Program-made: the position numbers and the translations under genes
Shown: piece by piece, positions 6,534 through 62,975 of the stretch
Numbering within the stretch: the stretch's first letter is position 1
Layout of the letters: each line of letters starts with the position of its first letter
Notes under the pieces: generated by a model
What the model was told of the DNA's origin: nothing
The model's input: the letters and a program-made list of their open reading frames with translations, nothing else
Database searches by the model: none
NCBI GenBank assembly: GCA_035526765.1
Contig: DATLBS010000030.1
Span: forward strand, 191,153 to 255,152
DNA from: Thermoplasmatota archaeon
GTDB lineage: Archaea; Thermoplasmatota; E2; JACPAO01; JAHFTW01
Direction: 5' to 3'
Length of the DNA stretch: 64,000 bases

Positions 6534-6659
6534 ACTCGCCACTGCCCAGCGCAGAGGACGCAGAGATCCGAGAGAAGGTTCGACGTCGCGGCGAGCAAAC
6601 CACACCACTCCCCTTCTCTACGCTCTCTGCGGCTGGTCGAAGCGGGAGGCGGTGCTGAG

Positions 6660-7088
6660 TCACTTCTTGCCGGAAGCCTTCGCCTTGGCGAACGCCGCCT
6701 GCACCGCCGACTCCAGCCCCTTGCGGTCACCCTGCATGGGGTCGACGCGGACCCAGCCGAACAGCTTGAACACGGCGCCCTCGGGCTCGCCCAGCGTGAA
6801 CCCCGACCCTTCCAGGCTCTTCCTCTGCGCCGGGTCAAGCAAGACCTCGACCGCTCCCGGGTGCTCCCCGCCGCGGAACAGGCGCACGAACTGGTTGCAG
6901 CCGACGATGAGCGCCACGTGCTCCTTGCCGAACTCCGACTGCAGCTCGGCGCCGGCGTCGCTGGCGCACGCCTGAGCGGTGCGCACCAGGTCCTGCAGCA
7001 GCTGCCTGTGCGGCTCCGGGACCGGGGCGCGCTCGAGCAGGCGGAGGGGGCGGTCGTCCCCGGCGGGCACGGTCGGGGTGTGGTCCAT
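6660..7088 (-). CDS. DsrE/DsrF-like family protein (tentative)
   Basis: 142 aa with a …LIVGCNQF… motif, which fits that family. Start moved to the ATG at 7088; the listed start is TTG. Confidence 0.5.
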   Translation of the reverse strand: MDHTPTVPAGDDRPLRLLERAPVPEPHRQLLQDLVRTAQACASDAGAELQSEFGKEHVALIVGCNQFVRLFRGGEHPGAVEVLLDPAQRKSLEGSGFTLGEPEGAVFKLFGWVRVDPMQGDRKGLESAVQAAFAKAKASGKK

Positions 7089-7363
7089 GGGTGGATCGCA
7101 GACGTGCAAAGAGAAGGCCGTTGCGCACGGGGGTGGGTGGTTGCCGCGTTCCGAACGCCACGGAGCACACGGAACCCACGGACCGGACCAGTTGTGATGA
7201 CGGACCCCTGGACTCTGTCGTGCAACCCGCCTCCGTGGCTTCCGTGGATTCCGTAGCTACCGTAGGGCGGCACTGGCAACTTGACGGCCCTACCTACAAT
7301 GTCTCAGTGGGAATTTCCCAGCGACCCAGACTTCGCTCGAGATTTCACGCCGTGACTAGGTTC

Positions 7364-7371
7364 CTTATATT
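7364..7371 (+). promoter_or_regulatory. Archaeal TATA box (CTTATATT) about 25 nt upstream of the ATG at 7396. Implies a leaderless or short-leader transcript.
   Basis: An AT-rich octamer in an otherwise 68% GC region, at the canonical -26/-30 position for the downstream glycoprotein gene. Confidence 0.55.
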
Positions 7372-7395
7372 TCGCGCGAAGCCGTTGCCGTCTCC

Positions 7396-8043
7396 ATGAA
7401 CCTGCTGACGCTCGTTTCATCCCTCGTGCTAGTCGCCTCCACCGCCACCGCCGGCATCCTGGCCGCCCCTCCCCTGCTTGGGACGACGGCTGCCGACGAG
7501 AACCACGGACCCGGCATCGCCATCGGTGGCTGGTGCATCGGCTCCTGCGGCAACCAGACCGGTGGGCAGGACAACTCGACGCACGGCAACCAGACCTCGC
7601 CGCTGCCCCCGCCGCTGGGTGGGCACCAGGGACCCTCCGGCAACCACACCCGCAACCAGACCTCGCCGCCGCCCGCCACCAACCAGACGGCCCCCCCGCC
7701 CACCTGCGGGGTGGAGATCCATGACTCGCGCGACATCGAGGGGCCCACCCGCATCCTGTGGACCTGGATGGTCGGCACCGCCACCACGAACCTCACCGTC
7801 GACCTCAACGTCGATGGCACCTGGGTCCCGATGGGGGGCGGCGCACGCGTGCTCCTGACGGACGGCGACGGCGATGTCGTGGCCAGCTCCTCGAGCTCAG
7901 GGTACGCGCTGCCCTTCGACCACACGTCCATCCGCTACTCGGCGACCGCGGAGGAAGGCCTCGCGTACGGGGAATGGCACCTCACCGTGGAAGCCAATGG
8001 TCTCCTGGGTGGAGCCTACCTCGACGTCCACAGTGCATGCTAA
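7396..8043 (+). CDS. Secreted protein with N-glycosylation sequons and a Pro/Thr-rich segment (hypothetical)
   Basis: Signal peptide MNLLTLVSSLVLVASTATA. Seven N-x-S/T sequons (NQT, NST, NQT, NHT, NQT, NQT, NLT). Ordinary codon usage. Confidence 0.55.
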   Translation: MNLLTLVSSLVLVASTATAGILAAPPLLGTTAADENHGPGIAIGGWCIGSCGNQTGGQDNSTHGNQTSPLPPPLGGHQGPSGNHTRNQTSPPPATNQTAPPPTCGVEIHDSRDIEGPTRILWTWMVGTATTNLTVDLNVDGTWVPMGGGARVLLTDGDGDVVASSSSSGYALPFDHTSIRYSATAEEGLAYGEWHLTVEANGLLGGAYLDVHSAC

Positions 8044-10699: not shown

Positions 10700-11110
10700 A
10701 CGGCCCCGCAAGGCGCCACTGCGACTTCACGCGGATGTCGCGGAACACGCGGAGATTTGCCCCCCCGAGCCAGACGCCGCCACCACGAGTCCGCGTTCTC
10801 CGTGCGTTCCGCGTGACGTCTTCGGCGGCGCGGCTGCGCCGCGCCCCAAATCCATCGCTTGCAATACCAACCCGTTGGGCTAGCCGGCCGCGCCGCCGTC
10901 GCAGGAGTGTTTGACTGGTTGGGGGTCTACGACGGACCGATGGGTCGTGCCGGGACCAGGGCGACCCATCCAAGTCATCTGTGGCATCTGTGGGTTCGGC
11001 AGGTCGCGCAACACCGCAACAGGAAACCGCACCTCCCATTCTCTGCGACCTCTGCGGCTGGCAGTCGCGCAGGGCGGAACGCTCATGAGCAATCCTCGCG
11101 TCGCGCCGGC

Positions 11111-25839: not shown

Positions 25840-26100
25840 CCGTACAAGCGGGAAGAAGGAAAGGGAGGAGAGAGGTGTCCGAGGATTGGATGGGAAAAGG
25901 GGTGTCCAAGTGACGGGAAGTGAAGGAGAGGGAAGAGGGAGGTGTCCGAGGATTGGAAGGGAAGAGGGGTGTCCAGGTGATCGGGATGTTGAGAGGGAGG
26001 GGGAGGAGGAAGGTGTCCAGGATAGGGAGAAGGGAGGTGTCCGGGGAGCGGGAAGGGGACGTGGGGGTCCCGGTGGATGGGAAGAGGGAGGGGAAAAGGG
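25840..26100. repeat. Purine-rich tandem repeat: two 67-bp units plus degenerate copies, with six GGTGTCC cores
   Basis: GAGGTGTCCGAGGATTGGA[T/A]GGGAA[A/G]AGGGGTGTCCA[A/G]GTGA recurs at 25871 and 25938. GGTGTCC occurs six times in about 180 bp. The top strand is almost pure purine. Confidence 0.8.
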
Positions 26101-26114
26101 GACCTGCGGCTTGC

Positions 26115-26738
26115 CTACAGGCGGCGGCGCAGCATCAGCAGGCTGCCACCCAGGGCGCCCACGGTGCCGATCATCAGCGCGCCGACCGAGGGGAACACGG
26201 GGATCTCCGTGCTGGGGCCGGTCTCGGTGCCGGGAGGGGTCGTCTCGGTGCCCGGCGGGGTCGTCTCGGTGCCGGTCGGGGTGCTCTCCTCGCACTCCAC
26301 CCAGAAGACCTTCATCTTCTCGTGCTGCTCGTCGCTGACGAAGAGCTTGTAGTGGCCGGACGGGAGCGAGTAGGGCCCGTTCAGGAAGTGGTGGGAGTCC
26401 TCGGTCTGGTCGTCGGCCGTGTAGGTGTCCTCGAGGACGACGGTCTTGTCGCCCGTCGGGGGCCAGGACTTGATCACGATCGTGCCGTGCTCGGCGTCCA
26501 TGTTGAAGCCCTCGACATAGAAGGGGCAGTCGACGTGGGGGTCGTTCTCCATCTCCCCGATGTCGCCCTCGGTGTGCACCTTCACGGTGCCGTTGTTGTT
26601 GCAGTCGGCGGCGTCATCGTCGCCGTCGCACACGGGGGCGGCCATCGCGGGCGTCCCAAGGGCCACGAGGGCAAGCCCCGTGAACAGGAAGAGGGCGGTC
26701 GTCAAGGCTAGCTTTCGGCGGGAGTTTGGGCGCACCAT
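26115..26738 (-). CDS. Secreted Thr/Pro-rich protein with a C-terminal archaeosortase-type sorting signal (hypothetical)
   Basis: Signal peptide MVRPNSRRKLALTTALFLFTGLALVALGTPAMA. Linker TPTGTETTPPGTETTPPGTETGPSTE. C-terminus IPVFPSVGALMIGTVGALGGSLLMLRRRL. Confidence 0.6.
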   Translation of the reverse strand: MVRPNSRRKLALTTALFLFTGLALVALGTPAMAAPVCDGDDDAADCNNNGTVKVHTEGDIGEMENDPHVDCPFYVEGFNMDAEHGTIVIKSWPPTGDKTVVLEDTYTADDQTEDSHHFLNGPYSLPSGHYKLFVSDEQHEKMKVFWVECEESTPTGTETTPPGTETTPPGTETGPSTEIPVFPSVGALMIGTVGALGGSLLMLRRRL

Positions 26739-46575: not shown

Positions 46576-46596
46576 AGCCGAGTTCGGCGCCCACCT

Positions 46597-46662
46597 AACC
46601 ACAGATTTCACAGATGACACAGATCGTGGTTGGTTCTGTGAAATCTGTGCAATCTGTGGTTC
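46597..46662. repeat. Inverted array: 3 x CACAGAT (9-bp period) facing 3 x ATCTGTG, forming an imperfect hairpin of about 28 bp between convergent genes
   Basis: aaCCACAGATttCACAGATgaCACAGATcgtggttggttCTGTGaaATCTGTGcaATCTGTGgtt. Locally AT-rich. Confidence 0.8.
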
Positions 46663-46695
46663 GTTGGGTCGCGAACCCCCGCGGCCAGGCTTCCG

Positions 46696-53618: not shown

Positions 53619-53882
53619 TTCCACGGACCGCGCGGAACACCCGCGGAACCTTTGCGGGCCCGGTTTTGCGTGAGGTTCCATCGTGCGTTCCGCGGCTGGC
53701 GTTCGGCGGGCGCGCTTCGTGCGCCCCTTCCATCGCCTGCAATACCAACAGGTCGTGCTGGACCACGGCGTCGGCACCACATGGTGTTTGACGGGTGCGG
53801 GTCGACGACAGACCGGCGGGGTGCCGAGCAGAAGCCGTGGGCCGTGCCCGTGGCGGGCGACGTCATCTGTGGACCTGGTGGA

Positions 53883-61271: not shown

Positions 61272-62909
61272 TCAGGCGCGGCGCCGGAAGGCCAGCGCGG
61301 CCAGCAGCATCGCCGCCAGCGGCACGAAGGCGGGCAGGGGCGTGCCCTTGCCGGTGTCCGTCGTGCCGTCGCCGTCGGAGTCGGGGTCCTGCTCGTTGGC
61401 GATGCCGTCGCCGTCCCGGTCCGGGTCCTGGTCGTTGGGGATGCCGTCGGCGTCCAGGTCGGTGGCCGTGGTCGCGACATCCGATTTCGCGAACAGTCCC
61501 CTGCCCTCGGTCTGCCGCATGACGCGGGCGGCGCGGTCGCGGTACCCCTGGCTTCCCGTCTTGAGGGTGGAGGCGCACTCGCGGGTGCAGCCGTCCGCGA
61601 ACCCGATGACCATGCGGCCGTTGGAGTCGATGTCCATGTCCTTGAAGTCCAGCAGGTTGCGGCAGGCGCCCGAGCCGTCCACGACGACATCGTACATGCC
61701 ACCCAGCTGCACCGGGTCGTCGCTGACGCGCTTGACGGTCCAGGTCTGCCCGGCGTCATAGCTGGCAGCGATGTAGGAACGCCACACCAGGTCCTCCTGG
61801 CGCTCGTCGCAGTTGTAGATGCGGTCTGAGCGCAGGTAGGTGCGGTTGGCGGCGGTCTCCTCGAGGCCGAAGAAGCTCAGGGCCACGCGGTCGTCGTCGC
61901 CGGCCTCCACGTCCGTGAAGGAGCCGGCCCACACGGGCGGGCTGGCCAGGAGGCCGAGGTCGAGCCAGCCGGTCGCGGCGCCGTGCGAGGAGCCCAGCGG
62001 CTCCCAGGTCTTCCCCTCGTCCTTGGTGAGGGCGACGTGGACGCCGTGCTCCGATGCCATCGCATAATACATCCAGCCGGAGGCGCGGGTGAACTGCAGG
62101 CTCGGGTCGAAGCCGTTGGCCCACTCCTCGGTCCCGGGGACCTCGTTGGATTTCCAGGTGAGCCCCCCGTCGGCGGTCGAGAGGAAGCCGTGGCGTTCGC
62201 CGCATGCGCCGGTGGGCACCGCCACGAAGCCGTCGCGCGGGTTGACCTGAAGGTGCCCGTGGAAGCCGTGGCAGGCGCCCGGGACGTCCACGAACGGTCC
62301 CCAGACCTGGCCGCCGTCGAGGCTGCGCGCGCAACTGATGGTGCCTCCCTGAGCGCAGTAGTAGGCCACGTGCCCGCCCTCGGAGGTGACCGGCAAGGGT
62401 CCGGCGGGCGGCCCGGTGCCGACGGTCTGGTGGTCGAAGTTGGACCCGCTGCACATGTTGATGGAGGGCAGCCAGGTGGCTCCGTCGTCGTCGGAGATCA
62501 TCATCTCGCTGCAGGGGCCGAGGAGGCCGCCGGCGAAGACGCGACCGGTCGTGACGTCGGCGTAGATCATGGGGTCGAGGTTCTGCGGGACCTGGTAGGG
62601 AGGGGTGACATCGGCCCACGTGGGCTTGCCTGCGGCGTCGAAGCGGGCGCGGTACGTGTGGACGCCGGCATGGTAGAACACGGAGTCGGTGGTCCACGGG
62701 ATGCCCAGGGTGGGCTCCGAGGCACCGGTGGCCGCAGGCACGGCGAACTCGGTGAAGGCGGGGGCTCCCGACTGGCCGAAGGAGGCAGTTGCGTCCGGGA
62801 CGAGGACCAGGGTGAGCGTCAGGACGGCAACGAGCGGGAAGAGGATGCGCACGTCCCTTCGGAAGCTGGCTGCTTCATCAAGGTTGGGGGGCGCCCCTGC
62901 GCCTGCCAA
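61272..62909 (-). CDS. Secreted BNR/Asp-box repeat (sialidase-like propeller) protein with TSP3-like Ca-binding repeats and a C-terminal archaeosortase-type sorting signal
   Basis: Five SxDxGxTW Asp-boxes. DLDADGIPNDQDPDRDGDGIANEQDPDSDGDG. C-terminus PLPAFVPLAAMLLAALAFRRRA. TTG start. Confidence 0.7.
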   Translation of the reverse strand: MAGAGAPPNLDEAASFRRDVRILFPLVAVLTLTLVLVPDATASFGQSGAPAFTEFAVPAATGASEPTLGIPWTTDSVFYHAGVHTYRARFDAAGKPTWADVTPPYQVPQNLDPMIYADVTTGRVFAGGLLGPCSEMMISDDDGATWLPSINMCSGSNFDHQTVGTGPPAGPLPVTSEGGHVAYYCAQGGTISCARSLDGGQVWGPFVDVPGACHGFHGHLQVNPRDGFVAVPTGACGERHGFLSTADGGLTWKSNEVPGTEEWANGFDPSLQFTRASGWMYYAMASEHGVHVALTKDEGKTWEPLGSSHGAATGWLDLGLLASPPVWAGSFTDVEAGDDDRVALSFFGLEETAANRTYLRSDRIYNCDERQEDLVWRSYIAASYDAGQTWTVKRVSDDPVQLGGMYDVVVDGSGACRNLLDFKDMDIDSNGRMVIGFADGCTRECASTLKTGSQGYRDRAARVMRQTEGRGLFAKSDVATTATDLDADGIPNDQDPDRDGDGIANEQDPDSDGDGTTDTGKGTPLPAFVPLAAMLLAALAFRRRA

Positions 62910-62975
62910 CCGCCACGAATTCCACGGAGTGCACGAAGCCCACGTGTTCGTGGGTTCCGTGGTTTTGGGGGGAGA

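Follow-up and report, generated by a model that had tools for sequence, protein, structure and literature searches.

Dispersed extragenic palindromic repeats are well known. They include repetitive extragenic palindromic (REP) sequences, the bacterial interspersed mosaic elements (BIMEs) and the REP doublets forming hairpins (REPINs). As described in the accessible parts of two sources, they are short, imperfect palindromes that lie outside genes and have many copies in each genome; they form genome-specific families, often occur as inverted doublets that fold into larger hairpins, turn over quickly between relatives, leave no target-site duplication and mostly have no adjacent transposase gene (PMC6006769; PMC3733652). 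The repeats surveyed there comprise, in the same accessible parts, GTAG- or CGTC-tagged REPs, class 3 'CnGA-foot' structures and the terminal inverted repeats (TIRs) of the TIR-associated tyrosine transposases (TIRYTs). A repeat that resembles REPs in all of these general properties is found in a 64,000-nucleotide stretch of a Thermoplasmatota archaeon (contig DATLBS010000030.1, positions 191,153 to 255,152). It lies between two divergent genes, at positions 6660-7088 and 7396-8043 of the stretch, where two arrays of a hexamer repeated every 9 bp face one another; it is here termed element A. The arrays are members of a dispersed family whose grammar is strict, and they are not a conserved operator of this promoter. 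With slightly better than even confidence, we regard element A as one copy of a dispersed foldback repeat of the REP/REPIN kind, which a sequence-specific factor copies in trans and which was inserted here between two promoters.

Element A was first described in a reading of the letters without database searches (the sequence-only reading), as three CACGGA hexamers at an exact 9-bp period facing four complementary units some 50 bp away. The three hexamers are present as described (7159-7164, 7168-7173 and 7177-7182), and 49 nucleotides (nt) separate the two arms. The four complementary units are also present (TCCGTG at 7232 and 7241, TCCGTA at 7250 and ACCGTA at 7259), although their spacing is exactly 9 bp and not 9-10 bp. 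Both arrays are also reported by Tandem Repeats Finder (TRF), and a repeat search returns the whole as a 41-nt imperfect inverted repeat (7142-7182 and 7232-7272) that is 73% complementary. The suggestion that the element could form a hairpin is likewise supported, since on either strand the region 7140-7275 is predicted to fold as a long interrupted hairpin, with helices of 6-7 bp broken by small internal loops. The folding energies on the two strands are -68 and -70 kcal/mol (z = -4.6), and none of 200 shuffled sequences is as stable.

Element A has relatives close by. The window, that is the whole 64,000-nt stretch that was analysed, contains at least six such elements, all of them intergenic (Table 1), in divergent (A), convergent (those at 46600 and 6550) and tandem or 3' contexts (those at 10730, 62914 and 53622). 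With up to one mismatch allowed, the pattern CRCRRA-N3 repeated three times is matched seven times in the window, where 0.07 matches are expected; the largest number in any of 100 dinucleotide shuffles was one. Two-unit arrays number 18 against 0.62 expected, and the two-unit scan added the decayed copies at 6550-6631, 10978-11056 and 53622-53694. A scan for hexamers of any sequence that recur three times every 9 bp returns only low-complexity G/C runs and four loci (7159/7232, 10730/10790, 46600/46635 and 62914). A chance origin of the arrays in the window is excluded. The sequence-only reading had named occurrence at background frequency in shuffled sequence as speaking against its proposal; the arrays are far above that frequency. 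The related array that it had reported at 46597-46662 proves to be a full member of the family (element C), with CACAGAT three times (46600-46624) and ATCTGTG three times (46635-46658) within 42-nt arms that are 81% complementary.

The cores of the four loci fit C-R-C-R-R-A and differ by transitions only. The core variant differs between loci of this one genome and is uniform within a locus. In the window the loops are mostly not conserved between copies and internal sequence is not common to the copies. Hairpin predictions (ViennaRNA) give z values of -7.2 and -7.8 for element C and -3.2 for B, and a weak signal for D, which has a truncated right arm with a TTTT run after it.

The anatomy of the family has been drawn from about 100 elements; loci beyond the window are given here by L numbers. 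The consensus architecture is aaC-CACGGA-N3 with the unit repeated three times, a loop, and TCCGTG-N3 repeated three times and ending in Gtt. Exactly three units are present in 664 of 780 arrays (85%), and 101 of 114 pairs have three on each side. The loop has a median length of 58 nt (interquartile range 32-96), and the inverted repeat reaches a median of 3 nt past the arrays. The flank before CACGGA favours A (57%) and then C (69%), with no GTAG or CGTC. Unit positions 1-6 are strongly conserved, at 72-100% for core positions. At position 7, T, G and A each account for about a third of cases, and the two arms agree there with a frequency of 0.88, where shuffled partners give 0.31; positions 8-9 are nearly free, with an arm match of 0.37-0.50 against 0.26-0.38 in the control. 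In the folded form predicted by ViennaRNA for the window copies, three 7-bp helices are separated by 2x2 internal loops. Because the spacers are unmatched between arms, most copies are not fresh inverted duplications, and the cores are held by selection or homogenisation while the spacers drift.

Copies are also found inside and beside one another. Concentric three-unit shells of different core variants are nested in L046, L040, L123, L562, L511 and L001; examples are CACGAA around CACGGA (L046), CACAGAG around CACGGAG (L040), CACAGAG around CACGAAG (L562) and CACAGAT around CCGCGGAA (L001). The last of these, from a related archaeon, carries at least five copies or half-copies of a composite of ~240 bp within 10.6 kb, with conserved non-array sequence and two half-types, alpha and beta, joined head to head. 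The partial arms at 10978-11056 of the window look like the outer shell of these composites. Rhodocyclaceae UBA2271 has four copies of a ~175-bp element with a common loop and ~50-bp arms (L027, two in L051, and L109), two of them in tandem, and L067 has three tandem copies. L001 and UBA2271 show, in two lineages, that the repeat has been copied and has spread. No target-site duplication was detected beyond a shifted control in 100 elements, repeats of 0, 2, 3 and 4 bp numbering 70, 24, 5 and 1 against 63, 28, 7 and 2.

Two side observations may be added. In Thiohalobacter thiocyanaticus Hrh1 (L014, 244-442 and 1795-1954), two elements of ~200 bp flank a rarA-like gene, and their loops hold a different REP-like palindrome (GTCATTCCTGCGCATGCAGGAATGAC / GTCATTCCGGCGTATGCCGGAATGAC), so that one repeat family sits within another. 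The archaeal contig of L001 ends, at its position 1, inside an array; from this one contig end, the repeats may cause breaks in short-read assemblies.

The architecture extends well beyond this archaeal lineage. An exact scan of species-representative genomes for CACGGA-N3-CACGGA-N3-CACGGA returned at least 120 stretches, and among the matches listed CACGGA triple arrays are abundant in IMG/VR viral contigs as well. At least 10 bacterial phyla carry the three-by-nine foldback architecture, together with one Methanosarcinales assembly and phage contigs. Carriers include Verrucomicrobiota (Opitutales, Pedosphaera, Akkermansiaceae and Chthoniobacterales), Planctomycetota, Acidobacteriota, Gemmatimonadales, Leptospirales, Spirochaetota, Bacteroidota, Kiritimatiellia, Lentisphaeria, and beta- and gamma-proteobacteria; isolates are represented by Thiohalobacter thiocyanaticus, Wenzhouxiangella and an Opitutaceae strain. 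Similarity search with the canonical element gave no match in PLSDB plasmids, cultured-phage records or E. coli genomes. The Methanosarcinales locus (L098, 7436-7520), from a metagenome-assembled genome of 46% G+C, has a complete element in which CACAGA/CACGGA units are followed by TCCGCG/TCCGTG three times; it is a second archaeal order with the element, provided that the contig is correctly binned.

Raw counts of arrays are uninformative, as two control hexamers of the same base composition, GACCGA and AGCGCA, are also abundant, mostly in long coding tandem repeats. The discriminating feature is a partner array, inverted, within 400 bp and with at most 3 mismatches in 18. Among the matches listed, 64 of 151 CACGGA triple arrays from genomes have such a partner downstream and 9 have one upstream; in viral contigs the figures are 40 and 3 of 162 for CACGGA and 15 and 2 of 144 for CACAGA. 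The viral controls give none downstream, and upstream 1 of 122 for GACCGA and 2 of 127 for AGCGCA. A downstream partner therefore accompanies 104 of 313 listed CACGGA arrays and 0 of 249 listed control arrays. Pairs within 400 bp run forward-then-reverse in 55 cases and reverse-then-forward in 7. Because downstream inverted partners are confined to C-R-C-R-R-A hexamers and few partners lie upstream, the architecture is sequence-specific and polar, with the CAC ends outward. A separate observation comes from Streptomyces diastatochromogenes, where at least six units of 9 bp (GCGGAATAC / GCGGAGTAC / ACGGAGTAC ...) adjoin a long palindrome rich in G+C at the beginning of a contig of 1 kb (L041, 1-120); this is possibly a different, actinobacterial use of the same 9-bp unit.

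Element A was compared with its orthologous loci. The same gene neighbourhood was recovered in eight related lineages by exact-protein look-ups, whilst a metagenome scan for orthologues of the flanking protein yielded 3 distant loci only. Identity of the flanking protein is 87% in L003 and about 78% in L495. The TATA box that had been proposed at 7364 is indeed present, as CTTATAT 26-32 nt 5' of the ATG at 7396. This box and its neighbourhood (ctaggttccttatat...) are kept in L003, L491/L492, L493/L494 and L495, where the divergent gap measures 917, 106, 76 and 227 bp, respectively. Only in L001 does the divergent gap hold repeats, and there they belong to another variant (CCGCGGAA) and form part of a larger composite. 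Because orthologous promoters keep the TATA region without the array, some of them within only 76-106 bp, element A is an insertion relative to a self-sufficient promoter region of ~100 bp. The long gap of L003 (2430-3340, the orthologue of window 7089-7395) is expanded by lower-G+C DNA with a called 97-amino-acid open reading frame (ORF; 2620-2913) that has no Pfam match; this insertion is unrelated but occupies the same permissive site. At the far side of the 6660-7088 gene, the convergent gap differs from lineage to lineage (Table 1), and each element found there carries the same variant in both arms. Repeat turnover at orthologous sites is fast.

On the REP-like reading, the module is a 7-nt core (C-R-C-R-R-A and one family-specific base) followed by two free bases, with three modules per arm. 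A single-stranded DNA or RNA form would fold into a hairpin of three 7-bp helices with 2x2 internal loops. A protein recognising the phased cores, probably on folded single strands and with three cores to each arm, would then make copies in trans, in a manner analogous to the mobilisation of REPs and REPINs by HUH tyrosine transposases, which also occurs without target duplication. Element A would be a copy that landed, or was kept, in the permissive space separating two core promoters, and effects on the flanking genes, through a cruciform, a roadblock or 5' structure, would be secondary, if any. This model is the best supported because it accounts for the multi-copy families, the nesting within loops, the fast turnover, the lack of target duplications, the extragenic position in all gene contexts and the spread across domains and into phages. 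The 7+2-nt module, the three-per-arm rule, the polarity, the nesting of shells and the cross-domain and phage distribution match no family that was found.

The strict grammar of the family (7+2-nt module, three per arm, fixed polarity and nested shells) implies a specific reader protein, and it recurs from a soil archaeon of 70% G+C to Verrucomicrobiota, Planctomycetota, Acidobacteriota, Bacteroidota, Proteobacteria and phages. A wider and more tentative proposal, which we hold to be possible although rather doubtful, is that these repeats form a previously unrecognised class of elements across domains, present in at least 10 bacterial phyla, in Thermoplasmatota and Methanosarcinales and in tailed phages, whose phased 7-nt cores (C-R-C-R-R-A-D) are read three at a time by conserved machinery. 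If this were so, the machinery would be either a new trans-acting mobilising enzyme that makes no target duplication or a nucleic-acid-binding factor that phages exploit upstream of genes, and the fact that the core varies by transitions only, its changes being matched in the arm opposite, would reflect selection on pairing within a folded single strand. If the elements are mobile, REP-like biology is extended to Archaea with a new recognition mode; if they are instead a host signal, they are a widespread unannotated intergenic feature. Such an element could be mistaken for a regulatory motif in metagenome-assembled genomes.

The element is also set apart from known repeats in several ways. 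REPs have a 5' GTAG/GTGG or CGTC tag, whereas the foot of the element is aaC-CAC; the REP arm is a single hairpin unit, whereas the arm of the element is made of three direct modules of 9 nt, whose core is conserved between phyla and between domains. Unlike the REPs mobilised by REP-associated tyrosine transposases (RAYTs), the element has no RAYT-like gene that could be found in the window or the fetched loci. With miniature inverted-repeat transposable elements (MITEs) and foldback elements, such as the Correia repeat enclosed element (CREE), it has in common terminal inverted repeats, in the form of inverted arms around a variable non-coding centre, nested copies and, in some genomes (L001 and UBA2271), multi-copy families with conserved internal sequence. 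The terminal inverted repeats of foldback transposons are built of short tandem subrepeats, as are the arms here. In contrast to MITEs, there is no target-site duplication, no related autonomous insertion sequence (IS) was found, and beyond the arrays the inverted repeat continues for a median of only 3 nt. Several phased direct sites at each end, with the ends inverted, are known from Mu (three per end), Tn7 and IS21 and from the subterminal repeats of Ac and En/Spm. However, those sites are of ~20 bp, flank a transposase gene and are associated with target duplications, whereas the sites of the element are of 7+2 nt and nothing is encoded between the arms.

A number of observations weigh against copying in trans. 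The tag that defines REPs is absent. No clean pair of filled and empty sites with exact boundaries occurs among the loci compared. A HUH-Y1 motif was not matched in ORFs of the window or of the fetched genome and viral loci, a search made with a crude regular expression and over 64 kb of the host genome, and all-against-all BLAST of nearby ORFs revealed no recurrent gene family beside the arrays in genome loci. The left flanks of the convergent-gap elements are alike across relatives (CCGAC(C/T)(A/G)A(A/C)); thus, these copies may be one old insertion that has evolved in place by compensatory changes, which would point to selection on structure and not to mobility. Finally, the single arms of phages, which cannot form a hairpin and stand before many start codons, some at conserved positions, suggest a signal used by the host rather than a purely selfish element.

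Related tailed-phage contigs, with portal, terminase and capsid genes, carry single arms in tight intergenic gaps in either orientation. Near the portal gene a single arm is kept in the same syntenic gap, in R orientation in L131, L177, L216, L217, L219, L235 and L245 and in F orientation in L182, L206 and L229. In L131, L177, L219, L235, L245 and their relatives, ccccTCCGTGctcTCCGTGtccTCCGTGGttaa lies ~35 nt 5' of the start of a small gene preceding the portal gene, and in L182, L206 and L229, TAA-CCACGGAgaaCACGGAgagCACGGAgggg fills the gap from the portal stop codon to the next ATG. In the latter three, the third unit and a following GGGG also make a Shine-Dalgarno-like GGAGGGG just 5' of the ATG. 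Three further IMG/VR contigs (L539, 9556-13341; L565, 453-10797; L180, 7702-11799) have a three-unit single arm with no inverted partner in many consecutive gaps, often 5-70 nt 5' of a start codon and in either orientation. Mycobacteriophage stoperators and the start-associated and extended start-associated sequences (SAS/ESAS) are likewise short asymmetric repeats in small gaps 5' of many phage genes. The arms of L539, L565, L180 and the portal-gene group are placed in the same way, but stoperators and SAS are single sites of 13-17 bp specific to phage clusters and are not common to host chromosomes across phyla. As single arms are unable to form a hairpin, it would appear that something reads the phased cores as such, and a host signal is thereby kept alive as an explanation.

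According to that explanation, the repeats would be a structural signal read by a conserved cellular factor and copied by phages to exploit the host machinery; the signal might terminate transcription in both directions or act as an insulator, might serve the processing or stability of RNA or, in the case of single arms, might be associated with translation start. It is consistent with the presence of an element in the convergent gap of six of eight related lineages, in which the variants differ and the arms stay complementary, as expected of compensatory evolution. In the two arms, position 7 and the purine positions covary and the spacers drift. The hairpins have high stability (z down to -7.8), and a TTTT run follows element D; the phage arms before many consecutive genes, at some positions conserved among related phages, fit equally. 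However, the repeats are dispensable at orthologous sites, as seen in the 5-bp convergent gap of L491/L492 and the array-free divergent promoters of five lineages. Most copies lack a U tract, and some lie between divergent genes, where there is nothing to terminate. Hairpin function alone would not explain why the core is conserved all the way from Thermoplasmatota to Verrucomicrobiota or why the unit number is fixed at three, and the lack of matches in E. coli genomes, PLSDB plasmids and cultured-phage records shows that the signal is not universal. We know of no factor shared by Bacteria and Archaea that reads such a motif. We therefore consider a host signal unlikely, although it is the strongest competitor of the REP-like reading.

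The sequence-only reading had instead proposed a cooperative transcription-factor array, which would be an operator for the divergent promoters of the 6660-7088 and 7396-8043 genes. Element A does lie between divergent genes, with arms pointing at start codons 50-70 nt and ~130 nt away, and phased direct or inverted short repeats are a known operator architecture. The operators of ribbon-helix-helix proteins, such as the omega heptads and the MetJ met-boxes, consist of contiguous short repeats, direct and inverted, that can be bound cooperatively. Such operators are specific to a promoter and conserved with the regulated gene, whereas element A is neither. The array is missing from every orthologous promoter examined (L003, L491/L492, L493/L494 and L495) although the TATA region is kept, and it was absence at orthologous loci that the sequence-only reading had itself named as speaking against its proposal. 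Identical architecture occurs in the window away from promoters, between convergent genes (46600 and 6550) and 3' of genes (10730 and 53622). A core variant that changes from locus to locus and yet is uniform within each is not expected from one regulator, and a 9-bp phasing would place successive sites on different faces of B-DNA. An operator is accordingly very improbable, and with it a tempting regulatory story is removed from this locus, where two core promoters are self-sufficient and the arrays are inserted between them. Chance or local slippage, with unrelated microsatellite-like duplications of 9 bp facing each other, would fit the general abundance of 9-bp-period tandem repeats, such as the mostly coding three-residue repeats of the control hexamers, but the hundredfold excess of arrays in the window, the restriction of inverted partners to the C-R-C-R-R-A family, the bias in orientation and the fixed three units leave this explanation practically no probability.

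A mobiliser, an RNA family or an earlier description was also sought. In viral loci, BLAST of ORFs neighbouring the arrays recovers phage structural genes only (portal, terminase and capsid). Where the arms of a pair lie far apart, the genes enclosed are of housekeeping type (trmB, SDR, radical SAM and rarA), with no transposase, and no autonomous IS with the same ends was seen among them. In Rfam 15, the window gives tRNA-Lys only at gathering score and no family is found at the elements in 18 bacterial carrier loci; permissive searches of the window, the locus and the carrier loci return generic noise resembling miRNA-precursor hairpins. A Blastocatellia contig (L013) does have two inverted matches to the Acido-Lenti-1 RNA motif, at 1346-1390 on the minus strand and 1477-1521 on the plus strand (45 and 37 bits, ~90 nt apart), which are unrelated to the 9-nt arrays. 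A link to DnaA boxes was considered, as TTATCCGTG resembles TTATCCACA and some RAYTs have a DnaA-C-like domain; phmmer with a query meant to represent domain IV of E. coli DnaA had no match among the ORFs of genome carrier loci. To our knowledge, DnaA is lacking in archaea.

Published repeats were compared in the same way. The class 3 HUH-Y1 'CnGA-foot' structures occur in overlapping taxa, and CGGA and CAGA fit CnGA, but the available supplement gives a different repeat, CCGAGCCGCGACCGTAAGGGAGCGG (PMC6006769). REPs of RAYT subclasses 2.6 and 2.7 have the words CACGGAAA and CACAGAT in common with the element, but are, in the accessible part of the source, single short hairpins and not three-by-nine arrays (PMC6006769). 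TIRYT TIRs carry a GGGGWSAS motif unlike the array core, as far as the accessible text describes them (PMC3733652), and the available REP survey table of PMC6006769 contains nothing with three-by-nine architecture. No published description was found by sequence word or by concept in a literature that excludes most subscription journals, and the element is provisionally regarded as undescribed.

Other candidates were set aside on general knowledge. A CsrA sponge is contradicted by variants that have no GGA and by the lack of CsrA in archaea, and a Rho rut site by the lack of Rho there. The sigma-54 -24 element fits only the subset with TGG spacers, and the consensus RNA polymerase pause is in the wrong register. 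Invertons would require longer loops than many copies have, and fresh copies are too perfectly paired for K-turns. An intrinsic terminator is a poor fit to element A, which lies between two 5' ends, has no T run and has a 49-nt loop; only element D has TTTT.

Table 1. Coordinates and contents of element A, its relatives and its surroundings in the window, with the state of the convergent gap in related lineages
Feature	Position or locus	Strand	Description
Element A, left arm	7159..7182	+	Three 9-nt units, core CACGGA; 0 mismatches to CRCRRA-N3 x3
Element A, right arm	7232..7264	+	Inverted units TCCGTG, TCCGTG, TCCGTA and degenerate fourth ACCGTA
Element A, whole	7142..7272	.	Imperfect inverted repeat around 49-nt loop
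Element A, loop	7183..7231	.	Unlike loops of other copies; own small internal hairpin
Family member, degenerate	6550..6631	.	CGCAGAG at 6550, 6559; TCTACG/TCTGCG at 6617, 6626; between convergent genes
Family member B	10730..10813	.	CGCGGA x3 10730-10753, 36-nt loop, TCCGCG/TCCGTG/TCCGCG 10790-10813; 3' of one gene, 5' of purP
Partial arms	10978..11056	.	ATCTGTG x2 10978-10992; CTCTGCG x2 11042-11056
Family member C	46582..46676	.	CACAGAT x3, 11-nt loop, ATCTGTG x3; between convergent nadE and CarboxypepD_reg-domain gene
Family member E	53622..53694	.	CACGGA/CGCGGA/CGCGGA, then decayed TTTGCG/TTTGCG/TCCGCG; 3' of gene
Family member D	62914..62961	.	CACGAA/CACGGA/CACGAA, TTCGTG (62947), TCCGTG (62956); between tandem minus-strand genes
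TATA-like box CTTATAT of 7396-8043 gene	7364..7370	+	~100 nt from right arm; conserved in orthologues
Flanking gene, conserved 142-aa hypothetical protein	6660..7088	-	No Pfam/NCBIfam match
Flanking gene, 215-aa protein	7396..8043	+	Signal-peptide-like hydrophobic N terminus; many N-x-S/T sequons; no family match
Convergent gap next to 6660-7088 gene	L491/L492		5 bp, empty
Convergent gap next to 6660-7088 gene	L005		6 bp, empty
Convergent gap next to 6660-7088 gene	L493/L494		Complete CGCGGA x3 / TCCGCG x3 element
Convergent gap next to 6660-7088 gene	L003/L004		CACGAA x3 element
Convergent gap next to 6660-7088 gene	L495		Two-unit CACAGA element
Convergent gap next to 6660-7088 gene	L001		Composite element
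Convergent gap next to 6660-7088 gene	L488 (protein 61% identical)		CGCGGA/CGCGAA element
Convergent gap next to 6660-7088 gene	Window		Decayed CGCAGAG element

The window as a whole has a G+C content of 70% and contains an archaeal purP gene (DUF1246/DUF1297). Given its distance from the right arm, the TATA-like box of the 7396-8043 gene is outside the repeat proper. The label 'DsrE-like', which had been given to the 6660-7088 gene, finds no support in any Pfam or NCBIfam family. The protein is 100% identical to one from a Candidatus Thermoplasmatota metagenome-assembled genome. At E <= 0.001 its homologues number 155; of the 120 that are listed, all with a name are 'hypothetical' and the named sources are mostly Thermoplasmatota. 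Its gene usually stands next to those of a MauE/HMBD membrane protein and a SET-domain protein. The family is conserved and uncharacterised. The sequons of the 7396-8043 protein include NQT, NST, NHT and NLT, and its exact sequence was found in one other short contig only.

The window also contains tandem repeats of other kinds. A purine-rich repeat with a 67-bp unit (GAAGGAGAGGGAGGAGGGAGGTGTCC..., 2.5 copies by TRF) occupies 25855-26100; related repeats of 24 bp and 12 bp come after it, and it has no connection with the arrays. A 21-bp unit is repeated three times at 26221-26282 with 90% matches, and a 39-bp unit is repeated 2.5 times at 61364-61460, inside a BNR-repeat protein gene on the minus strand (61272-62852).

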